Below, piece after piece: positions 301 to 25,161 of a stretch of DNA of 31,871 nucleotides (position 1 is its first letter; each line of letters opens with the position of its first letter). Source of the stretch: a virus. Its lineage: Duplodnaviria; Heunggongvirae; Uroviricota; Caudoviricetes. The notes under the pieces were generated by a model. It made no database searches, had not been told where the DNA came from, and saw only the letters and a program-made list of their open reading frames with translations. The DNA lies in the IMG/VR virus record IMGVR_UViG_2548876962_000012; one strand, written 5' to 3'. Made by a program: the position numbers and the translations under genes.

Positions 301-1464
301 TCACTCATTACCTTCTGTTTCGTACTCCACATCAGAAAGCCTGACCTCAAGCTCTAAGGACGTCGTGAAGCCGCTATTATTCAGAAAATGTGTCACCTTA
401 GCGATGGTCCAGTCCTGCTCGTCTATGACGCGCTTAAAGCCTGACACTTTGACCGGCGTTTCCGTGTAAATATCTGCACGACCGGTAGCCAGGCTGATGG
501 AGAACTCCGCTACGCCCCGTTGCAGTTTATCCCACTTCGCCTGAGCGGCGCGCATGGCCTGCGCTTTCGTGGCATATACCGTGGTCAGGGCAAAAACATT
601 GTCAGCCTCACCGGCCATGTATTCACCTTCGCGCGCTTCCGGTACTTTTGGCGCTTTCTTCTGCGTGACCGGTTTCGCTTTCGGGTGCTCCAGTGCGCGC
701 AGGTGTTTCTCTTTCTTTTTGCGTTTCAGTTTTACCTTCTGCTTTTGTGGCTTCGGGTCTTTGGTGTGTAACCACTTTGCCGTTACGCCGGTGTAGGCTC
801 CGCGGTCAGCAATCGCAAAATGATGACGGTCGCCGTCGCTGCGGGTGATGGTAATCTGCGGGATTTTTTTACCGCTGGCCGTCACCCCCTGCCCCGCTTT
901 GAGAAACAGCAGTTTTCCCATTTTTACCGACACCTCGCCGCCGTTGCGTTCAGCAAGACGGGTCAGGAATTTCGCATCAGACTCCTGCGACTGGTCGATG
1001 TGCGGGATTTTAATTCCTGCCAGTGACGGCGCGACACTGGCTTCCAGCCTGTTACGGGAGGCAATCGCCTCAACAATCGCACCGAGCGTGGTGTCATGCC
1101 AGGAGCCTTCACGGCGGGAATTGAGCGTCCCGCGAAAATCTGCACTCCGGGCCCGGATGGTGACCACATCCGGCGCGCCCCGGTGTTCTACCTCATCAAC
1201 GGTGAATTTCCCTTTGCATACCAGGGCAAAACCTTTCCAGCCGATATACACCGTCAGGACAGCGCCACGAACCGGCAGCCCGACCTGCCCGTCGGCATCG
1301 TTCAGTTCAATATCAAGCTGATCAGCCTCAAAGCCCCGGTTATCCGTCAGGGTCATGCTCATCAGACGCTCACTGATATTGCCGGTAATATCCCTGCTGT
1401 CGAGCATCAGCATGTAATCCGGCGTCAGCGTACTGCCTGCATCAAATGTCAGCGTATCCAGCAT
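301..1464 (-). CDS. D: Tail protein gpD (late control gene D), 387 aa
   Basis: 387-aa ORF at the P2 D position, immediately upstream of ogr; ATG start; start overlaps the U stop. Confidence 0.9.
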   Translation of the reverse strand: MLDTLTFDAGSTLTPDYMLMLDSRDITGNISERLMSMTLTDNRGFEADQLDIELNDADGQVGLPVRGAVLTVYIGWKGFALVCKGKFTVDEVEHRGAPDVVTIRARSADFRGTLNSRREGSWHDTTLGAIVEAIASRNRLEASVAPSLAGIKIPHIDQSQESDAKFLTRLAERNGGEVSVKMGKLLFLKAGQGVTASGKKIPQITITRSDGDRHHFAIADRGAYTGVTAKWLHTKDPKPQKQKVKLKRKKKEKHLRALEHPKAKPVTQKKAPKVPEAREGEYMAGEADNVFALTTVYATKAQAMRAAQAKWDKLQRGVAEFSISLATGRADIYTETPVKVSGFKRVIDEQDWTIAKVTHFLNNSGFTTSLELEVRLSDVEYETEGNE

Positions 1465-1943
1465 TATCCCGCCCCCGTCATACCCGTGAATTTAGTTGCC
1501 ATACTGCCCGCCTTACCGATGAGCGATTCCGCCTGTTTACCGATATCGCCATAAAGCGCGGCCAGTGATTCATCAACGCGGGTAAGTGACAGCGTAAAAT
1601 CAATTTTCCGGGGTGTGCCGTCTGCAAAGAAAAGACTCCCTGTTTCACTCACCCTGCTGATGACATACATGCCGTAAATCATGCCGGTGCCATCCAGCAA
1701 CGGCCACGCCCGGCCTTCCTCTGCCATCAGCCTGAGCGTGGTCATCGTCAGCTTTCCGCCGGTCAGTTCGGGATAAAGCACACCGGCAAGCGTGATGTTT
1801 TCCTCGCCAACGCCGAGAAACTGGTAGGCATCCCGTTTACCGATACGGGAATTTGACGGCCAGCGATAATCAGATTCACGCTGCATGGTCTGGTGTGGCA
1901 ACGTCTGGCGCATAAAAACAAACATACCTAACGCGAGCATCAT
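1464..1943 (-). CDS. U: Tail protein gpU, 159 aa
   Basis: 159-aa ORF between T and D; length and position match P2 U. Confidence 0.88.
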   Translation of the reverse strand: MMLALGMFVFMRQTLPHQTMQRESDYRWPSNSRIGKRDAYQFLGVGEENITLAGVLYPELTGGKLTMTTLRLMAEEGRAWPLLDGTGMIYGMYVISRVSETGSLFFADGTPRKIDFTLSLTRVDESLAALYGDIGKQAESLIGKAGSMATKFTGMTGAG

Positions 1944-1957
1944 TTTTCGTCACCTCC

Positions 1958-4405
1958 TTAACCGTCATGCATCATGCTGGCACGGGCGCGCGCACGTTTA
2001 TCCCGCTCGTATTTTTCGAGCGCATCCTGTAACTGGCGGTCAAGCTGTGTCCCCGGCGCAGTACCGCCCGTCAGGTTGATGTGATATTCGTTTTTACTCT
2101 GGTCCACATAAGAGCGACCAGCCGGTGCCGTGACCGGCTGATAAGCCTGATAGCCTGCATAAGAGCTGGTCGCCGGAATATAACCGCCGGTGCCATACGT
2201 GGCGACATGAGTCCTTGCGGCGGTCTGGTCAAGTGTGTCTGACTCTTTGTTGATAACACCGAGTTTTTCCAGTACCCAGTCAATACCGCTGCGCAGTTTG
2301 TTGAACGCATTAAGCGGCAGCATCAGCGCGTCAGCCAGTGCCTGCCCGAACATGACGCCCGTGTCACGGCAACGGTTCAGGGTGTCCTGGGTGGCTTTAA
2401 CCGGGGCAATCAGGTTTTTAAACCACTGCCACGCGGCCTGTAACTTTTCACCCAGCCAGTCAAACAGCGGCTTAAGTGGCGTGAACAGTTCCCCCACCGG
2501 CGCAAATGCCGCTTTCAGCCCTTCAACCACACCGCCAAAGAATGCGCTGACAGGCTCCCAGTATTTACGGATAAGTAACGCCCCGGCGACAATAGCGGCC
2601 ACCACAGCCACAACCGGCCAGCTAATCGCCCCGATGGCGGTCATAACAGCACTGCCAACCGTCGTGAAGATTGCCCCCATTGCGCCTGCTGCCGCGATGA
2701 TGGCATTGATGCCGGTGATAACCGGCCAGGCTACGAGGCCAATGGCACCAATGATGCCAGTCAGCGCCAGTGCACCACCGGCAATAATGCCGATGGTTGA
2801 CGCCAGTGATTTGTTTTTCTGGATCCAGCCGTCGAGTTTTAACACATACTTTGTGGCCGTCTGCGTGAGCTTACGCAGTGCGCCTTCCTGCTGGTCAAAC
2901 AGGTCAGTCCCCACCGCCTCATAAGCGGACTGAAACTCCTTAAAGTCACCGCCGAGGTTGTCCTGCATGATATTTACCAGCTCTGCGGTCTTTCCGTCAG
3001 AGGCTTTAAACGCAGCGGTCAGTTTGTCCAGCTTTCCGGTTGAGGCGGCAGTCATCAGCACGGCGGCGGCTGAACTGGCCTCCTCCCCGAAAATGGTTTT
3101 CATGTATTCAGCCTGCTGGGCAGTACCGAGCCGGTTTTTCTCAAAACTGGCCTGCATTTCTTTCAGAATGGTAAATATTGGCCGGGTGTTTCCCTTACTG
3201 TCTGAGGTTTTCACACCAAGCTCTTTCAGTGCATCCCATGCTTTTCCCGTCGGTGCCTGCAGGCGGCTTAACACGGCACGGCTTCCCGTCCCCGCCATTG
3301 AACCGGTAATTTTTGCATCATGCAGTGCACCGACCATTGCGGCGGTTTCTTCAATGCTGACACCGGCATTTTTTGCCACAGGTGCGGCATAGGTCAGCGC
3401 ATCGCTCATGCCGTCAAAATCGGCGGCGGTTTTGTTCATCGTCATGGAGAGAACATCCCCGATATGAGCGACTTTATCGTTTGAAAGCTGAAAGGCGGAT
3501 TTCATCCCCATCAGCAGGGCGGCGTTTTCTTCCATCGTGCGGCGGTTCGCCAGCGCCATGTTCAGCGTGACCGGCGTTGCCGCCTGAATGGCATCAACAT
3601 CCCCACCGGCTTTCGCAATGATAATCTGTGCACCGGCCGCATCATCCGCCGAGGCGGCGGTATTGTCGCCGAGCTGGCGCGCCTGTTTGCGTAGTGCGGC
3701 CATTTCGGTGGAGTCTTTTGCCACTCCGAGCACAGCCTGTAATTCTGAGTTTTTCTGCGCAAACTCATAACCGGGCATCAGCAGCTTAACTCCGGCCATC
3801 GTTCCCGCCGCCGCAATCCCCACACCGGCAGCGCCCACTGAGGCCATATTTCCGGCCAGTTCCTTGCCTGCCTGATAACGCTGTTTGACTGCGTTAAGTT
3901 TTGCCTGTTGCGCACTGACACGCGCCAGCGCGTCGCGCTGACGGTTAAGTTGTGCGGTGGTTTCACTGATACGGTTTTTCAGTCCCTGCTCATCATGTGC
4001 AAGATTGCGGGTATTAATTCCCACTGCGGCCAGTTCCCGCTGCTGGCGTTTAACGGAATCTGTCAGGCGGTTATATTTCGCCTGTAAGTCCTCCGCCGCA
4101 CGCTTTGCGGATTCCAGCACTTTCGCCTGAGCACGGGTCGGACGTTCAGTGTTTTTAAACTGTGTGGCAAGTGCTTCGGCTTCCTGCCGTGCCTTTTCAA
4201 GTGCATGACCAGTCACGGCAAGCTGTGCGCTGGTCTTGCGAAATCCCTCAATACGGGATGCGTGAGCATTCAGCTCGCGCAGTGATTTTTGTGTTTCCCG
4301 GATATCCCCCGACAGCGACTTACTCGCTGTGCGGATGGATTTAAACGGGCGGGATGCCTGGTCAACAGCCCTGAGCAATACCTGTAATTTTACATTGTTA
4401 CTCAT
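1958..4405 (-). CDS. T: Tail tape measure protein gpT, 815 aa
   Basis: 815-aa ORF with coiled-coil-rich N-terminal half and Gly/Ala-rich hydrophobic segments typical of tape measure proteins; position after E/E'. Confidence 0.9.
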   Translation of the reverse strand: MSNNVKLQVLLRAVDQASRPFKSIRTASKSLSGDIRETQKSLRELNAHASRIEGFRKTSAQLAVTGHALEKARQEAEALATQFKNTERPTRAQAKVLESAKRAAEDLQAKYNRLTDSVKRQQRELAAVGINTRNLAHDEQGLKNRISETTAQLNRQRDALARVSAQQAKLNAVKQRYQAGKELAGNMASVGAAGVGIAAAGTMAGVKLLMPGYEFAQKNSELQAVLGVAKDSTEMAALRKQARQLGDNTAASADDAAGAQIIIAKAGGDVDAIQAATPVTLNMALANRRTMEENAALLMGMKSAFQLSNDKVAHIGDVLSMTMNKTAADFDGMSDALTYAAPVAKNAGVSIEETAAMVGALHDAKITGSMAGTGSRAVLSRLQAPTGKAWDALKELGVKTSDSKGNTRPIFTILKEMQASFEKNRLGTAQQAEYMKTIFGEEASSAAAVLMTAASTGKLDKLTAAFKASDGKTAELVNIMQDNLGGDFKEFQSAYEAVGTDLFDQQEGALRKLTQTATKYVLKLDGWIQKNKSLASTIGIIAGGALALTGIIGAIGLVAWPVITGINAIIAAAGAMGAIFTTVGSAVMTAIGAISWPVVAVVAAIVAGALLIRKYWEPVSAFFGGVVEGLKAAFAPVGELFTPLKPLFDWLGEKLQAAWQWFKNLIAPVKATQDTLNRCRDTGVMFGQALADALMLPLNAFNKLRSGIDWVLEKLGVINKESDTLDQTAARTHVATYGTGGYIPATSSYAGYQAYQPVTAPAGRSYVDQSKNEYHINLTGGTAPGTQLDRQLQDALEKYERDKRARARASMMHDG

Positions 4406-4825
4406 TCGTGTTTCCGCTTCGCTGGAGCGCCTTTTCGCGCCATGTGATGAGTTCGGTCAGGCTCATGGGATACAGTTCTGATGGCGGCCAGTGAAATATC
4501 ACTGCCACATCCGCCATCAGGTCATCTACCGACAGATTTTTCGGAAACGTCACTGCACCGAGTTCGGCGACAAAAAACCGACCACCTTACCGGCCAGTTC
4601 CACAAGGTCAGGCAGTTCCAGCGCGGCGACTTCCTGCTCGGTCAGCATCGGTGCCGTCATGCGCGGCAGCACCTTAATAAGTGCATCGACTTCGGAGTGT
4701 GCGACCGAAGCCAGACTGACACCGCGAAGCGTCCCGGCATTAGGTTTCATCAGCGTGACCTGTTTGATAACCTGCTCACCACGTTTGACCGGATTTTCCA
4801 GGGTAATCACATTTTCTTTGTTCAT
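4398..4825 (-). CDS. E+E': gpE+E' programmed -1 frameshift product, about 142 aa
   Basis: Minus-strand slippery heptamer T6G (plus-strand a-run 4572-4577 plus 4571) near the 3' end of E. The -1 frame continues FFVAELGAVTFPKNLSVDDL...RSGNTNE to a TAA at 4398-4400 that overlaps the T start codon. Confidence 0.75.
4550..4825 (-). CDS. E: Tail assembly chaperone gpE, 91 aa
   Basis: 91-aa ORF between FII and T, ending ...GFLSPNSVQ; the slippery site lies in its last codons. Confidence 0.85.
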   Translation of the reverse strand: MNKENVITLENPVKRGEQVIKQVTLMKPNAGTLRGVSLASVAHSEVDALIKVLPRMTAPMLTEQEVAALELPDLVELAGKVVGFLSPNSVQ

Positions 4826-6931: not shown

Positions 6932-7900
6932 TTATATGCCATTTTCAAGATCTGCGATTAGGTCAAAGCATAGCGATTTATAATCCTTTACGATCTTCGG
7001 CCGAATGGTTATTGAATGATATTTCAGCAACGCAAGGGCGAATGAGGAAAAATACAGCCAGAACCAGTCATCTTCCGGTAAATTGACATCTTGCACAGTC
7101 GCCGACCAACGCCCGTAAATGGGAGGATGAGTCTCTGAACCCGCGAGACGGTTTCTTCCTGTTGCGAAAAGGATAAAGGCGAATGCTAGAGCGATCCCCA
7201 TCATACGCTTCATCCTAACCTTTTCCGGGGGATACCCACTGCTTGCGGCGTACTCATCGATCTTGGATATCATCATATCCTTAGCGAACTGATCACACAG
7301 ATATTCTTCGTCCTTCGGGTCTTCCGGTGCATTTCCTTCAACTGAGAAAATTACGTGCTTCAGTTCATGTAAAAATACATATGCCGTAGCCATGCACATA
7401 AGATCATATACTGCAGCGCTCTCTGAATCTGACGGCCTACCCTTCTCAGGCTCAGGAATAGCCACTGGCCATTCAAAGTCGTCTTCATGAAATGCAGTGC
7501 TCAGGTCTTTCACTGCATCAAGTATCGACTTGAAGGCTTCATCTTCTGCTGCCTGATCTGGAATCTTGTTGATTTTGTTTATGTCGAGAGTGGCACCGCA
7601 TGATTTGAACAATTCAATCAACGAACAATAACAATGTAACGCCTGCATTCCCGCATAACTGAAAAGCCATATTTGACGCATTGATCTGCTGGTGTACTGG
7701 ATTGCGGAGAATCCTCCAGCATCTAAGTTAAATCCTTCGCGGTCACCAATCAGTCGGAACTGGGCATCATAATCGTTAGCGATAGATTCAATCTCTGATG
7801 CTCTCTCAGGAACAACACCGTCAAAAAGTTTTCGAACATTGTCTGTCGTTTCCACTAGTCCTCCTATGGCATATAAAAGTGCGTTATACCGGCCCCGCAA
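6932..7900 (-). CDS. Cargo protein with HExxH motif, putative zinc metallopeptidase, 322 aa (Z/fun position)
   Basis: AT-rich ORF between G and FI; HELKH at residues 178-182 followed by acidic residues; one hydrophobic segment (GIALAFAFILFATG); TTG start at 7900 preceded by a strong SD (AAGGAAG, 6-nt spacer); own downstream terminator. Confidence 0.6.
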   Translation of the reverse strand: MRGRYNALLYAIGGLVETTDNVRKLFDGVVPERASEIESIANDYDAQFRLIGDREGFNLDAGGFSAIQYTSRSMRQIWLFSYAGMQALHCYCSLIELFKSCGATLDINKINKIPDQAAEDEAFKSILDAVKDLSTAFHEDDFEWPVAIPEPEKGRPSDSESAAVYDLMCMATAYVFLHELKHVIFSVEGNAPEDPKDEEYLCDQFAKDMMISKIDEYAASSGYPPEKVRMKRMMGIALAFAFILFATGRNRLAGSETHPPIYGRWSATVQDVNLPEDDWFWLYFSSFALALLKYHSITIRPKIVKDYKSLCFDLIADLENGI

Positions 7901-8080: not shown

Positions 8081-8608
8081 TTATTGCGGCATTTCCGGCC
8101 ATTCAGGATTTGCAGGATCCACACGACTGACCAGAACGCTGTAGCGTTCCCATGTTTTAAGTCGGCTACGCTCCTCATCTGTTGCCATATTCAGCCTGAC
8201 AGCACGCTCCAGCGGCAAAATCACGGATTCAGCATCTGCAAGAAGTCTGGCTTTCCGATTTTCTGCCTGCTGCTGCAATTCCTCTGCCGTATAAATGCGT
8301 TTAATCACTTTGCCGTCCTTAAACATCCAGTTCCCTGAAATGTCCGCCCGTCGGTTAGCAGTAATATCCGCCACTTCAACAACACTTAATCCATCCGGTC
8401 TGATAGCTGTCACATCCTTTTCCACATAGTGGATGATATTATCTTTGTCGTACGCTATTTTTATCGTGTCATCAGCAAAATACTTTTGTTCTTCGTACCA
8501 GTTCTTACCATCTTCTGAAAAAAACCAGACAACATCAAAGTCCTTTGTCAATTGATATTGTTCAACCGTTTTTGGATTACCCGCCGAAATATTTTTTAAA
8601 TGCTGCAT
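8081..8608 (-). CDS. G: Tail fibre assembly chaperone gpG, 175 aa
   Basis: 175-aa ORF immediately downstream of H; length and position of P2 G. Confidence 0.85.
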
Positions 8609-8611
8609 AAA

Positions 8612-10861
8612 TTATACCTGCGCCACGTTATACCATGTCCCGTTAATGTATTTCTGCACCGGTCTGTAATATACGCCACCAATGTTATCGGCAGAGTTTG
8701 AGCCGGTATCCTGAACAATAATGCCGGTATATACGCAACCTGACGGAGCCTGATGCGTCCATGTAGTACCATTATTTGCTGGTTTATATGTAGATGCACC
8801 GCCCAGCCGCATGTCTCTCATATAACGTGAATCTGACTCAGTTTTGGTGTATGCACCAACATCTCCCGCTGAGGGTTTATGAGCAGTTGTATATAGTTGC
8901 GCCCATCCAGACCAGTTAGCATCTGTGGTATCTCGTCGGGAGCGAATATATGCCGGAGCATGAGCACCGCTGGTTCCACTCCAGCCAATAAGTAACTCAC
9001 CCTCTCCTACTGCGGTTACGCCAGTGAGATGAAGCACATTACCATAGGCTGTTGGGTAGCCATTGTTGTATGCCTCATACATCTGAACACCTGGTGTCCC
9101 CTTTACGCTCCCACCTAATGCAGTAACACGGTTTCTGGATACCAGTGTATTAATATTTATATCGGCAGAGCCATCAAATCTGACACCATTAATATTTCTT
9201 GCGTTCGCTAACTTCGTTGCTGTTGCAGCATTTCCTGAAAGGCTGGAAATAAATGGATGTGAACAGTAATAACCACGTCCATTTTTAAAATCCAGAATAG
9301 CCTGTGCGTTCGTGCTTTCTGTAGCGGGATTAGTTGCCCCCCACTTATATGTCGTCTGACCGACGACATAATCCTCTGTCGGAACAATAACCGTTAGCCC
9401 TTCCTCTGCAAGAATTTGTACAGGGAAAGCTCTGGCTTCAACATAAAAAACACTACATACATCATCATCTTTCAGGCTTGTAACAATGGAATGAATTGAA
9501 CGCTCATTAGTCTGATACGTCCAGAAATAACCTGCCGCATATGAACCACGATCAGTCCAGCCTCCGGGCATAACCATGCCATTAAACTCGCAGTTATTCA
9601 TTACATAATCGCTGTTATAACAACCAGTGGAAATAACGACGCGGGATGCCATTTCTCCTGAAAGGCTGGCAGCACGGCGAAAGATAACGGGATACCACTT
9701 CCCGGCAACGACATTTGCAGGGGCTGCAAACGAATACTTTCGCATTCCCTTTTTCTTATCCACTTCACCTTTGCTGTAAACATTAATGTTACTCAGGAAG
9801 CGTCCTTTATCAGGAATATCCGCACCGTTCTGATCTTTCTGAAGACGTTTTTCAGCATTGTCATAGGCAGACTTCACCGCTTTTGGTGTTGCGGCCAGCG
9901 TTTCAGAATCACTGTTGGTGGCGCTACTGAGCTGGACAAGCCCTTTTCGCGCCGTGGTGGCATCCTGTGCAGTGTATTTCCCGTTAGCAAGGTCATACGC
10001 GGCCTTTACCGCCTTTGGCGTTGCCGCAAGCATTTCAGAATCGCTGTTGGTGACGCTACTGAGCTGGACAAGACCTTTTCGCGCTGTGGTGGCGTCCTGT
10101 GCAGTGTATTTCCCGTTAGCAAGGTCATATGCTGCCTTTACCGCTTTCGGCGTTGCGGCGAGCGTTTCAGACGTGCTGTTAGTCGCACTACTGAGCTGAA
10201 CAAGGCCTTTTCGCGCGGTGGTAGCGTCCTGTGCGGTATATTTCCCGTTAGCAAGGTCATATGCGGCCTTAACCGCTTTCGGCGTTGCAGCCAGTGTTTC
10301 AGACGTGCTGTTGGTCGCACTGCTTAACTGAGTAAAACCTTTTGCGGTCAGCGAGGCGTCAGGGTGACGTCGTGACTGTTCATGTTCTGCAATTTTGTCA
10401 TCAACGTAATCCTGCGTTGCCATCACCGTTGTGGTGTCAATGGTCAGCTCCACTGAGGCCACACTGCTGACGATGATGACCATGCGGCAGGTCTGCGAAC
10501 GCCCTGAGCCTTCGGCAAGAGCTGGCTTATAACTTTCGGCCATGTTCGCCACGGCAATTAACGTTCCAGCATCATCGTACAGGCCAAGCTCACGCATCCA
10601 GAAACCGCCCACCTCCGGCGGAATAACCAGCTCTGCGATAATATAATTACTGTTTCGTTTGTCCTGGCTGATTTTGTTCAGCGCATGTCGCCAGACTTCG
10701 TGGATAAGCCCGGTCTGTCCGGCATCCGGGACAGGCAATTTACCACCGCCATCCCCGACGGCCATCGTGGTAATGTTGACCTTCCGCCCTCCCGGTGCGG
10801 TTGCCGCTGCCAGCTTTGCTGCACCGGCAGTGGTGATAACGGTTTTGAATTTTGTGCTCAT
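8612..10861 (-). CDS. H: Tail fibre protein gpH, 749 aa
   Basis: N-terminus MSTKFKTVITTAGAAKLAAA typical of P2-family H; four tandem 44-aa tail-fibre repeats; a variable C-terminal region. Confidence 0.9.
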   Translation of the reverse strand: MSTKFKTVITTAGAAKLAAATAPGGRKVNITTMAVGDGGGKLPVPDAGQTGLIHEVWRHALNKISQDKRNSNYIIAELVIPPEVGGFWMRELGLYDDAGTLIAVANMAESYKPALAEGSGRSQTCRMVIIVSSVASVELTIDTTTVMATQDYVDDKIAEHEQSRRHPDASLTAKGFTQLSSATNSTSETLAATPKAVKAAYDLANGKYTAQDATTARKGLVQLSSATNSTSETLAATPKAVKAAYDLANGKYTAQDATTARKGLVQLSSVTNSDSEMLAATPKAVKAAYDLANGKYTAQDATTARKGLVQLSSATNSDSETLAATPKAVKSAYDNAEKRLQKDQNGADIPDKGRFLSNINVYSKGEVDKKKGMRKYSFAAPANVVAGKWYPVIFRRAASLSGEMASRVVISTGCYNSDYVMNNCEFNGMVMPGGWTDRGSYAAGYFWTYQTNERSIHSIVTSLKDDDVCSVFYVEARAFPVQILAEEGLTVIVPTEDYVVGQTTYKWGATNPATESTNAQAILDFKNGRGYYCSHPFISSLSGNAATATKLANARNINGVRFDGSADININTLVSRNRVTALGGSVKGTPGVQMYEAYNNGYPTAYGNVLHLTGVTAVGEGELLIGWSGTSGAHAPAYIRSRRDTTDANWSGWAQLYTTAHKPSAGDVGAYTKTESDSRYMRDMRLGGASTYKPANNGTTWTHQAPSGCVYTGIIVQDTGSNSADNIGGVYYRPVQKYINGTWYNVAQV
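9850..10375. repeat. Four tandem 132-bp in-frame repeats inside gene H
   Basis: Period exactly 132 bp (landmark tttcaga at 9900, 10032, 10164, 10296); encoded 44-aa unit KGLVQLSSATNS(T/D)SETLAATPKAVKAAYDLANGKYTAQDATTAR. Confidence 0.85.
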
Positions 10862-10871
10862 TATTCCTCAC

Positions 10872-11402
10872 TTATCCGGGGTAAACCGTAATTACATCGC
10901 CGTCGTAAGCCACACCACCGGCGAACAGGTAGCCGGGAATGTCCCGGGTAATGTTCAGGCCAATAAGATGACGACTTGCAGGTTTGGCATCAGCAATAAG
11001 CCGTTCCATTTCCTGATACATTGCCTCTGTGATGCCACTTTCCAGTACACCAATATCAAGCCGGAAGGTGCCGGGCGGGTCACTGTTTTCCCACCACTCC
11101 GTCACGTTGATGAGATAGCCGAGCGGCTCCACCACGCGTCGGATTGCGCCGACAGTGCCTTTATGACAATGAATGAAATACGCATCGCGAATAACGGCGC
11201 GTTTTGTCGCTTCCGGCCACTTTTCATCCCACCTGTCGACCGAAAACGCCCACGCCAGCCACGGCAGCAGATTTGCCGGACAGGTGTCCGGGTTCCACAG
11301 CTCACGAATACTGACCGGCGTTTTTTCAATTTCCGCACAGGCTTTTGCGGCAGCAATTTCAAGCGGTGATGAGCCGGTCGGCAGCAGGCGCGAATCACTC
11401 AT
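10872..11402 (-). CDS. I: Baseplate assembly protein gpI, 176 aa
   Basis: 176-aa ORF between J and H; P2 I length and position. Confidence 0.85.
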   Translation of the reverse strand: MSDSRLLPTGSSPLEIAAAKACAEIEKTPVSIRELWNPDTCPANLLPWLAWAFSVDRWDEKWPEATKRAVIRDAYFIHCHKGTVGAIRRVVEPLGYLINVTEWWENSDPPGTFRLDIGVLESGITEAMYQEMERLIADAKPASRHLIGLNITRDIPGYLFAGGVAYDGDVITVYPG

Positions 11403-13376: not shown

Positions 13377-14162
13377 ATGGTCAGCTATAATGTGACTAAT
13401 GTGTGGGAGCTAATCGTCTTGTATCTTTTGGTCTTTGTAGTATTAGCATTTTTTAGCTTTGGTAAAAGTAACCTTATGAGGCTTATTGCACATTATTTCA
13501 AATTTGGATATTCAGATAAAAAATTAAAAAGACTGGACCGCGAGTGGCGCGACATTCAACTATTTAAAATAATTAACGGAATCAATGTATCAGGCATCAA
13601 AGATGTGAAAATGATACAGCAGGGGTTGATTGATGGAAAACTAAAAACATCGGATTTTTTCCTTACTCGCTTCTGGGGAGACATAACAGAACCGCCATGC
13701 ATCACAAAAACAATGAGTGCAGTCCTGGCCGGAATTCTTTATATTACCTTCGCATGTTGCATACACAACGAGCAATCTGCCATAGTAGAGGATGCCATAG
13801 CCATACCATATAAAAATATGATGTACCATGTTTATAATGACAAGGTTCTTTTGTTCTCCGACAATAAAACAGATAAGTTCTATAAAGCGTTTAGCATTGC
13901 CGATTGCAAGAGACTGCAGAACACTTTTGTAACAGACACACTTCCTGCAATCGCCTGCAATAAGCTCTTACAGCTAAACGAGGAGGACTCCGAATGGTTA
14001 AGTCAGGAGATTAAAGATAATAACAGCCACAGAAAAACATTATTAATAATATCCCTCGTCTATTTCACTTCAGGTCTGGTTATACTTCTGTCATATACAA
14101 AATTCCTTTACGCCAATAAAAAAGTTGTAGAATACAAATCATCAAATAAAAACCACTCATAA
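13377..14162 (+). CDS. Cargo membrane protein, three predicted TM helices, 261 aa (orf30 position, opposite strand)
   Basis: Very AT-rich ORF on the opposite strand to all flanking late genes; ATG with SD AAGGAG at 7-nt spacing; hydrophobic segments at the N-terminus, middle (MSAVLAGILYITFACCI) and C-terminus (LLIISLVYFTSGLVILLSY). Confidence 0.6.
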   Translation: MVSYNVTNVWELIVLYLLVFVVLAFFSFGKSNLMRLIAHYFKFGYSDKKLKRLDREWRDIQLFKIINGINVSGIKDVKMIQQGLIDGKLKTSDFFLTRFWGDITEPPCITKTMSAVLAGILYITFACCIHNEQSAIVEDAIAIPYKNMMYHVYNDKVLLFSDNKTDKFYKAFSIADCKRLQNTFVTDTLPAIACNKLLQLNEEDSEWLSQEIKDNNSHRKTLLIISLVYFTSGLVILLSYTKFLYANKKVVEYKSSNKNHS

Positions 14163-23801: not shown

Positions 23802-24254
23802 TTATGCTTCCTCTGTATTCATAAGTCTTAAAAGAATTTCTCCAGTGCTAGCATCAGACATTAGATCATTTAACGCTTTGATTAACGTTTCTTTATCTTT
23901 GCACCTAACATCCCGTTTGTTATAAGAAATCACACATGGATAACCATCTGATTCATTTATCTTCCAAACAGCAATGTTCTCTTTAACTTCTGTTTGCTCT
24001 CTCTTAGTTACGAACGATAGAGCTTCGTAATCGATGTAAGGGTTGATGTTTGTAATCGAACTCACAACGGCAGTAAGCGCTGTCTGATTAGGTGCGAGTT
24101 TTTTTTCACTCGTAACTTTCAAAAACACTCGCCCTTGACTAAGCTCCTTTACACTGTCACTTAAGTCACTGATAACACTAAAAATTTCTTCTTTATTTGA
24201 TCTTGCTTTTTTGGCTGCCTCTAACCCCACAGCTAATGAATTTTTGAAATCCAT
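23802..24254 (-). CDS. Cargo protein of unknown function, 150 aa, downstream partner of the EEP gene
   Basis: AT-rich ORF; ATG 4 nt after the EEP gene stop with a GAGAGG SD-like element; no TM segments or recognisable motifs. Confidence 0.6.
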   Translation of the reverse strand: MDFKNSLAVGLEAAKKARSNKEEIFSVISDLSDSVKELSQGRVFLKVTSEKKLAPNQTALTAVVSSITNINPYIDYEALSFVTKREQTEVKENIAVWKINESDGYPCVISYNKRDVRCKDKETLIKALNDLMSDASTGEILLRLMNTEEA

Positions 24255-24258
24255 TTTT

Positions 24259-25161
24259 TTAACCTCTCGTAATTACAGCGATAACAGGTAAATGATCAAA
24301 GTTAGTTTTTGGACTTGTCACCAAATTTTTAAAGACTTCATCGTTAATGATTTTAACCTCATCCTCCAAAAGATTCCAATCTCCACCAGAAATGAATGAA
24401 GAGGAGAAAATAATTTGATCAAATGTATGCCAACGGGTTACAGCACCGCCACTGTAATAATATGTCCCGTAAGTACTCAAATGATGATCTTCTGATGGAA
24501 AACTAATTGAAGCCCCCATAAAATTCCAAAAAGGGTTGTATAAAAAAATATCTTTTTTGACAACCAAGTCTCTATCCCTTGTTGCCCCTAAAGCATGTGT
24601 AATAGATTTATTAAAGGGATCGTCATTGTAATCACCTAAAAGAATAAAATACTTTCCTGACTTTTCCTCTATACATCTACTGATCGCTCCTCGCAAAGCT
24701 TTTCCTAATTCATATCGTTTTGGCATTTCTTCATTAGAATCATTACCTCTCATAGGCCAATGCGATATGTAGAAAAAAAAATGATCCCCACTATTATTAT
24801 GCATGAGCTGAACTTCTTGCCCGGCTCTTACCGCTCCTAACAATGACTGTTCAACAATACTTTTACTATCAATGTAAGTGAAAGTAGCTAGCTTTATAAG
24901 AATGCACATATCATGTTTTATGCTTCCTTCAGTGAAAGTCCCATCATATATTATGAACCCTTTCTCTGAGAAAATCTCCTCTAAAACCTTAATATCTGAT
25001 GGTGATATTTCTCCAAGACATAGAATATCAACATTATGACTCATCAAAATATTTGTTATAAGAGCAAATGCTACATCCAACTCTTCAGGAGTAGAACGAT
25101 CTCTTTTAACCGCAGGAGATATCCCCGTATTCCACCAAGCGATTGAAACAGCCTCACACAT
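24259..25161 (-). CDS. Cargo EEP-fold (endonuclease/exonuclease/phosphatase family) protein, 300 aa
   Basis: Very AT-rich ORF; ordered EEP signature motifs: WWNTG near the N-terminus, DILCLGE (the LCLQE-type motif), LLGDYNDD (GDxN), and FDHLPV (SDHxPV-type) at the C-terminus. Confidence 0.7.
   Translation of the reverse strand: MCEAVSIAWWNTGISPAVKRDRSTPEELDVAFALITNILMSHNVDILCLGEISPSDIKVLEEIFSEKGFIIYDGTFTEGSIKHDMCILIKLATFTYIDSKSIVEQSLLGAVRAGQEVQLMHNNSGDHFFFYISHWPMRGNDSNEEMPKRYELGKALRGAISRCIEEKSGKYFILLGDYNDDPFNKSITHALGATRDRDLVVKKDIFLYNPFWNFMGASISFPSEDHHLSTYGTYYYSGGAVTRWHTFDQIIFSSSFISGGDWNLLEDEVKIINDEVFKNLVTSPKTNFDHLPVIAVITRG

Follow-up and report, generated by a model that had tools for sequence, protein, structure and literature searches.

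Why does a phage tail fibre gene carry the same 44-residue segment four times in a row, how does the number of copies change, and what do the copies contribute to the fibre? We addressed these questions for gene H in a 31,871-nucleotide stretch of viral DNA (IMG/VR record IMGVR_UViG_2548876962_000012), the whole of which is referred to below as the window. The repeat as such is already known. It belongs to a long-catalogued, curated Pfam family, and a protein 100% identical to the 749-aa H product of the window (P0021) is public, standing for a cluster of 166 members on 16 contigs and carrying the annotation 'tail fiber protein' along with the domains PF12571 and PF03406. A literature search for PF03406 and phage tail fiber repeat returned no paper on unit copy-number variation in P2-like H genes, and in the P2 fibre-engineering literature examined the repeats are not discussed.

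A repeat array in the tail fibre gene of a P2-like prophage

The whole window represents a P2-like prophage extending from gene D to the integrase, with tape measure, sheath, gpA and integrase genes present. Gene H occupies positions 8612..10861 on the minus strand and encodes 749 aa followed by a stop codon, as delineated by its open reading frame, one PF12571 and four PF03406 matches and alignment to P2 gpH and to H of P2_2H4. Directly upstream lies gene I, encoding a baseplate protein (10872..11402, minus strand; PF09684 Tail_P2_I, E = 9.7e-56), in the same order as in P2, while gene G, encoding the tail fibre assembly chaperone (8081..8608, minus strand; PF02413 Caudo_TAP, E = 1.1e-34), takes the position of P2 G. 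With Tail_P2_I and Baseplate_J upstream of H and the Caudo_TAP chaperone downstream, Pfam matches and the P2 annotation together identify the I-H-G arrangement of phage P2, and H resides at the P2-type late-operon position (V-W-J-I-H-G, then the Caudo_TAP chaperone).

The N-terminal baseplate-attachment domain (aa 1-168; 10358..10861, minus strand) contains the PF12571 Phage_tail_fib domain expected of a P2-type gpH (Peduovirus) at aa 1-151 (E = 1.3e-58). The distal, receptor-binding module (aa 345-749; 8615..9829, minus strand) is non-repeated. The PF12571 N-terminus, the I-H-G order and the near-identity of the first ~240 residues to P2 gpH all bear out the sequence-only reading of this gene as tail fibre gene H with a product of 749 aa. 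Fibres of the P2 gpH type are trimers that attach to the core of LPS and depend on gpG for their assembly.

Between these two regions, four in-frame units of 132 nt (44 aa each) span positions 9830-10357, all on the minus strand. Unit 1 (aa 169-212; 10226..10357) bears its own N-terminal cap, ASLTAKGFTQ, and remains recognizable as unit 1 in other genomes and genera. Units 2 (aa 213-256; 10094..10225) and 3 (aa 257-300; 9962..10093) are internal and agree exactly, in register, over a tract of 35 nt; unit 2 is among the internal units that are gained or lost in relatives. In unit 4 (aa 301-344; 9830..9961), the repeat core leads into a cap (SAYDNAEKRLQKDQ) that is particular to the type of distal module, and this cap, together with the following NGADIP segment, aligns to aa 99-173 of the Mu tail fibre S. 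The 44 residues after unit 4 are unrelated to the units (25-31% identity).

The register, period and copy count, which had been read from the letters alone, were borne out by the analysis. A lag scan across the gene revealed periodicity at 132, 264 and 396 nt only; the best 60-nt windows gave 57, 54 and 48 matches at these lags and no more than 27 at neighboring lags. At lag 132, units 1-3 and units 2-4 agree at 317 of 396 positions (80%; binomial P ~1e-107), compared to an in-phase background of 26.9% with a maximum of 35%. Tandem Repeats Finder reported a single array (9860-10315; period 132, 3.5 copies, 87% consensus matches, no indels, score 653), and a scan of the whole window found no 132-nt periodicity elsewhere. 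At the protein level, the TPKAVK motif recurs at aa 193, 237, 281 and 325, i.e. at a spacing of 44 aa. The suggestion that the unit contains a conserved phage tail-fibre repeat motif is likewise confirmed, as PF03406 (Phage_fiber_2; profile length 42, gathering threshold 22 bits) matches in four stretches with a total of 261.3 bits (E = 2e-79), the best of which covers profile positions 1-41 of 42. Of the original placement of the array at 9850-10375, the start agrees with the self-similar span (9850-10345), but the end lies ~20-30 nt too far. The array is thus real and statistically unambiguous, and it resides in an ordinary P2-type H gene.

Divergence and selection among the repeat units

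Pairwise, the units differ at 19-51 of their 132 DNA positions, with DNA identities of 81% for units 1 and 2, 86% for units 2 and 3, 73% for units 3 and 4 and 61% for units 1 and 4. At the protein level, units 1-3 differ from each other at 3-9 residues, and unit 4 shows 11-17 differences from the other units, with the divergence residing in its last third. The repeats had been described as near-perfect copies with only a few substitutions; this description fits the protein sequences of units 1-3 but not the DNA, in which the units are only 61-86% identical. Codon differences among units 1-3 are more often synonymous (12-13) than non-synonymous (3-9), and this synonymous excess implies that each unit has been under purifying selection. 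The longest exact in-register tracts measure 35 nt (units 2 and 3) and 26 nt (units 1 and 2). As a substrate for recombination this is modest, since 26-35 nt is close to the lower limit at which RecA-dependent exchange is efficient in Escherichia coli.

The divergence between units also bears on whether the count of four could be an assembly artefact, brought about by collapse or expansion of the repeats. Units that differ at this many positions can be placed even by short reads. Moreover, a single-piece match of 2250 nt, i.e. of the same length, with 97.2-98.6% identity was found in 41 of 5426 complete E. coli genomes, and the identical 749-aa protein represents the above-mentioned cluster of 166 sequences on 16 contigs. 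For practical purposes, an artefact of this kind is refuted.

Unit number among relatives

Besides these 41, two more of the complete E. coli genomes contain the gene, in a 2118-nt span with one unit fewer. A wider comparison of H repeat numbers across relatives, as had been proposed, showed that the number does vary, and that it does so in steps of exactly 44 aa (661, 705 and 749 aa). Among the best 120 of ~8000 homologues in the protein database, proteins whose distal 405 aa are at least 98% identical to the window's comprise, in the matches listed, at least 43 representatives of 749 aa (four units), at least 50 cluster representatives of 705 aa (three units) and at least eight of 661 aa (two units). 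Whole units therefore vary in number on an otherwise constant gene, for which the regions flanking the array show 98.4-99.4% DNA identity.

We also examined 80 IMG/VR loci in which the N-terminal domain is 98-100% identical to that of the window. Their H genes contain one, two, three, four or five units. For the most part this number goes with the kind of distal module that follows: one or two units precede the P2-type module (APLNSPALTGTP...), and three to five precede the NGADIP type. Within one distal cluster, 11 loci have four units and one (L041, 816 aa) has five. A five-unit H protein of 709 aa is also encoded in the complete genome NZ_CP041919. In other Enterobacterales, sampled with one genome per species, P2-type H genes with one to four units are found in Citrobacter, Salmonella, Buttiauxella, Scandinavium, Yokenella, Pluralibacter and other genera. 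P2-type H genes with a single unit are intact and of full length. Across 49 distinct architectures, proteins with more units are longer overall (rho 0.49), and there was no sign of length compensation, i.e. of more units being paired with a shorter distal module (Spearman rho -0.13, p = 0.37).

Junctions and time scale of copy-number change

Alleles that differ from the window in unit number but closely resemble it on both sides of the array were compared unit by unit. In a three-unit allele (locus L083; flanks 99.4% and 99.0% identical in DNA to the window), the first unit follows unit 1 and then unit 2 half by half and precedes counterparts of units 3 and 4, although diagnostic sites are few; for instance, the second half of the hybrid unit is assigned by six versus two differences. 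A two-unit allele (locus L085; flanks 98.4% and 99.1%) reads from unit 1 into unit 4, with the junction lying within sequence common to all units. Junctions were assigned by counting differences per quarter-unit, because painting of sites from sets of four-unit alleles proved too permissive. The junction within the hybrid of units 1 and 2 is suggestive of a mark left by out-of-register recombination. The three-unit alleles differ among themselves in unit sequence, and one of them carries a 4-residue in-frame deletion, suggesting that more than one event took place and that such events are probably recurrent. The window need not be the parent of the shorter alleles.

How often such events occur can be gauged from the relationships between units. 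Among E. coli P2-like phages, each unit is position-specific, with identities of 92-95% between orthologous units and of 61-89% between paralogous ones. This pattern indicates an array that is old and fairly stable, rather than a hot slippage tract, and it implies that the duplications are much older than the diversification of the E. coli P2-like phages. Together with the tracking of the distal module by unit number, position specificity further suggests that copy changes are infrequent. Some of the differences in copy number may have been imported with the array instead of originating by recombination inside the gene. We also considered a contingency locus, i.e. a hypermutable slippage tract, and rejected it, as the units are position-specific and diverged in DNA to the extent given above, and 41 of 43 near-identical genes from complete genomes have equal length.

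Between genera the relationship is reversed. Where multi-unit arrays were compared, internal units are 81-94% identical within an array, versus 63-79% identical to units of other genera, while the best match of unit 1 across genera is still unit 1. Paralogous internal units thus resemble each other more than their orthologs when genera are compared but not within the E. coli phages, which implies that homogenization is slow. Judged by these identities, the internal units have slowly evolved in concert, a pattern that unequal exchange or gene conversion leaves in the long term. The proposal that the repeats serve as substrates for unequal recombination is therefore supported by the two-, three- and four-unit alleles and, more tentatively, by the hybrid junction; the array, however, is older and more stable than the term 'near-perfect' had implied.

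Taken together, we favor a reading, to which we assign a probability of about three in four, in which the units are modules of the proximal shaft and occasional out-of-register homologous recombination gains or loses whole internal units. In the trimeric P2-type fibre, the units would serve as structural modules between the baseplate-plugging domain and the distal receptor-binding module, each being a PF03406 repeat maintained by purifying selection. The DNA identity between units, including the exact in-register tracts of 26-35 nt, would permit occasional out-of-register homologous recombination, either inside one gene or between the H genes of co-resident P2-like phages. Whole internal units would thereby be gained or lost, each event changing the fibre by exactly 44 residues, with the first unit and the capped last one remaining in place. 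Additional units presumably lengthen the shaft, and the agent would be homologous recombination of the RecA type or phage-mediated.

Possible roles of the repeat in the fibre

Part of the evidence invites a different emphasis. Reports that tail fibres evolve as mosaics, with exchange at motifs they share, go back to the 1990s, and the alignments indicate that the repeat unit is a conserved joint for the exchange of distal receptor-binding modules among P2-like, Mu-like and lambdoid fibres. A role of the repeat as a joint did not figure in the sequence-only reading. BLAST matches of related genes to window H break off in three places: at nt 594 and nt 858, directly behind the TPKAVK motifs of units 1 and 3, respectively, and at nt 1002-1059, where unit 4 ends and the NGADIP segment lies; the mosaic breakpoints thus fall in the repeats or at their edge. 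P2 gpH, in turn, departs from the window protein immediately past the TPKAVK of its second unit, and each type of distal module comes with its own cap in place of the last third of the final unit. The repeat could then be mainly a joint for module swaps, for which one copy is enough, with the extra copies being a largely neutral by-product. The tail fibre S of phage Mu, with its single unit (aa 112-155), the lambdoid Stf of E. coli AH01, in which a single unit precedes a homologue of the window's distal module, and the intact one-unit H genes of the P2 type all point in this direction. Single-unit fibres such as Mu S and the lambdoid Stf indeed imply that one unit suffices for a working joint, additional units being additions to the shaft. 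As the main account of the array, however, we regard this reading as possible but somewhat doubtful, since it leaves unexplained the purifying selection on each extra unit as well as the persistence of multi-unit arrays across genera. It is, moreover, compatible with the units being shaft modules and does not exclude it.

Alternatively, the units might be binding sites, the number of which sets a dosage, with the sheath (in a folded-up fibre), the chaperone for assembly or a glycan on the host surface as candidate partners. Indirect evidence comes from the strong conservation of the unit's protein sequence and from phage Mu, in the extended state of which the fibres dock along the sheath (PMC11915804). 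In Pfam, the protein matched PF03406 and PF12571 but no family with a binding or enzymatic function, and intact genes exist with any number of units from one to five. The parts of P2, Mu and P1 fibres that depend on chaperones and bind receptors are C-terminal, which also speaks against binding by the units, and we consider this reading very unlikely. That copy number could tune receptor reach or host range, as the sequence-only reading suggested, is a hypothesis. A further idea is that the array is a selectable length setting, such that alleles with two, three, four or five units on one receptor-binding module adsorb differently depending on the depth of the O-antigen or capsule. P2 chimeras engineered to differ greatly in fibre length still function (PMC9942202), which implies tolerance to changes in length but not tuning, and we think such a setting rather unlikely. 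If it did exist, the strong synonymous divergence between units would be maintained, keeping the setting stable against recombination.

Structural information on the unit is sparse. An AlphaFold2 monomer prediction for aa 148-407, based on a shallow alignment of 10 sequences, was unusable (pLDDT 47, pTM 0.29) and yielded no rise per unit. PDB sequence searches with the whole protein and with a profile of 13 units retrieved chains of the Mu tail fibre S as the only ones containing the unit; for the C-terminal part of window H, the PDB entries matched include Mu S and a short tail fibre. In the Mu virion structure, only the N-terminus of the fibre was built (PMC11915804), and a study from 2021 on the modelling of repeats still regarded the PF03406 fold as unsolved or ambiguous (PMC8078820).

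Implications

For basic knowledge, little depends on this array, and the practical value is modest. Nevertheless, one receptor-binding module is found naturally on shafts with two, three and four units, and P2-type fibres tolerate one to five units. Both points are useful for the design of engineered P2/P4 delivery particles and of R-type-pyocin-like fibres. The natural allele series in unit number also provides clean material for relating fibre length to adsorption.

Comparison with known systems

Changes in the length of a fibre gene by recombination between internal repeats have a counterpart in phage T4, for which Tetart et al. are said to have found in 1996 (J Mol Biol) that duplications in gp37 bounded by His boxes expand host range. 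The concept is the same, in that short motifs repeated within a fibre gene recombine and thereby give rise to an in-frame duplication. However, the T4 duplications reside in the distal tip of the adhesin, and their effect on host range has been shown, whereas the repeats of window H are proximal and known from sequence. A duplication of the gp37 type, bounded by GxHxH His boxes, was considered for window H and rejected, the 749-aa protein containing no G.H.H or H.H motif.

The shaft domains of the collagen-like fibre proteins EPclA/B, encoded by EHEC prophages, also vary by whole repeat periods, and EPclB contains a Pf2 (PF03406) repeat (PMC3368898). In these proteins, it is collagen (3-residue) and coiled-coil (7-residue) tracts that vary in length, not the number of PF03406 units.

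The lambdoid Stf of E. coli AH01 (WP_170879878.1, 1115 aa) carries one unit with the same cap as in the window, and the distal module behind this unit is a homologue of the window's. The proximal part of this Stf is unrelated to window H and consists of the N-terminal domain of lambdoid fibres and a stretch rich in Ala and Ser. The repeat HMM gave no match on this Stf, although the unit is plain by eye and by regular expression; the miss is probably an effect of the bias filter on the Ala/Ser-rich tract. In the Mu tail fibre S (gp49; PDB 5YVQ, 8JU3, 9KI1), the single unit leads into the same NGADIP segment as in the window. The C-terminal tip of Mu S is related to that of the window protein, while the N-terminal anchor is different, and the S gene resides on the invertible G segment (PMC11915804).

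The correspondence is more extensive in the P2-type fibres. P2 gpH (AF063097, 669 aa) shares with window H the V-W-J-I-H-G position, a near-identical N-terminal domain, a near-identical first unit and second-unit core, and the same C-terminal end (RPVQKYINGTWYNVAQV), but it has two units instead of four, and a different distal module (APLNSPALTGTP...) follows its second TPKAVK. The fibre of Peduovirus P2_2H4 / Escherichia phage 9W (LR595869, 748 aa), in contrast, has four units in the same register as the window and is 96.5% identical in DNA to window H over nt 1-1643 of the gene, with its distal module differing from the window's at ~aa 548-660.

Length variants of the tail fibre protein H and a module shared with a lambdoid fibre

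Among the proteins retrieved in a search with the 749-aa H of the window, P0120 (701 aa, annotated as Shigella dysenteriae) represents a three-unit allele, in which the second unit carries an in-frame deletion of four residues (VKAA). The length of H therefore also changes by less than a whole repeat unit. In the same search, the 749-aa protein that matches the query at every residue reached 1668 bits, and the 705-aa proteins with three units scored higher, at 1698 bits. This difference is probably an effect of the way HMMER scores repeated domains and biologically meaningless. The repeat array also encompasses a 94-aa ORF on the plus strand (9915-10199), antisense to H. Its translation is repetitive, and it is most simply explained as a by-product of the H repeats rather than as a gene.

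A homologue of the distal module of H is also found in a lambdoid side tail fibre of 1115 aa in E. coli AH01 (NZ_CP055251; positions 1126-4473 of locus L110), where it is joined to a single PF03406-type unit. This fibre thus provides a concrete example of one receptor-binding module common to P2-like and lambda-like prophages.

Candidate cargo genes and an opposite-strand ORF

Directly upstream of gene V, a 261-aa ORF (13377-14162, plus strand) lies on the strand opposite to the surrounding late genes. It had no match in Pfam or PADLOC; a 261-aa gene occupies the equivalent position in the related locus L083 and in a further locus, L084. Two adjoining minus-strand ORFs of 150 aa (23802-24254) and 300 aa (24259-25161) have the portal-side genes on one side and replication gene A on the other. 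The former lacked a match in Pfam or PADLOC, and the latter is a member of the endonuclease/exonuclease/phosphatase family. P2 carries tin/old at this location, so the two may represent uncharacterised cargo.

In the interval that separates the sheath gene from gene G, which encodes the tail fibre assembly chaperone, the window harbours a 322-aa ORF (6932-7900, minus strand) that matches Peptidase_U49 in Pfam (E = 3.8e-8) and the Lit model of PADLOC (E = 1.8e-14). Its product resembles an abortive-infection protease of the Lit type, which would be cargo of the prophage. Close relatives bear different cargo in this slot, after gene G: a GAPS4 pair (PDDEXK_GAPS4 and GAPS4b_N) in L083 (5832-7905), which has a three-unit H allele, and a 224-aa ORF, a 64-aa Caudo_TAP fragment and a RES-domain gene in L085 (5696-7986), which has a two-unit allele. 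The contents of this slot in the relatives of the window are consistent with a variable defence-gene hotspot. In P2, the slot corresponding to that of the 322-aa ORF is occupied by fun(Z).
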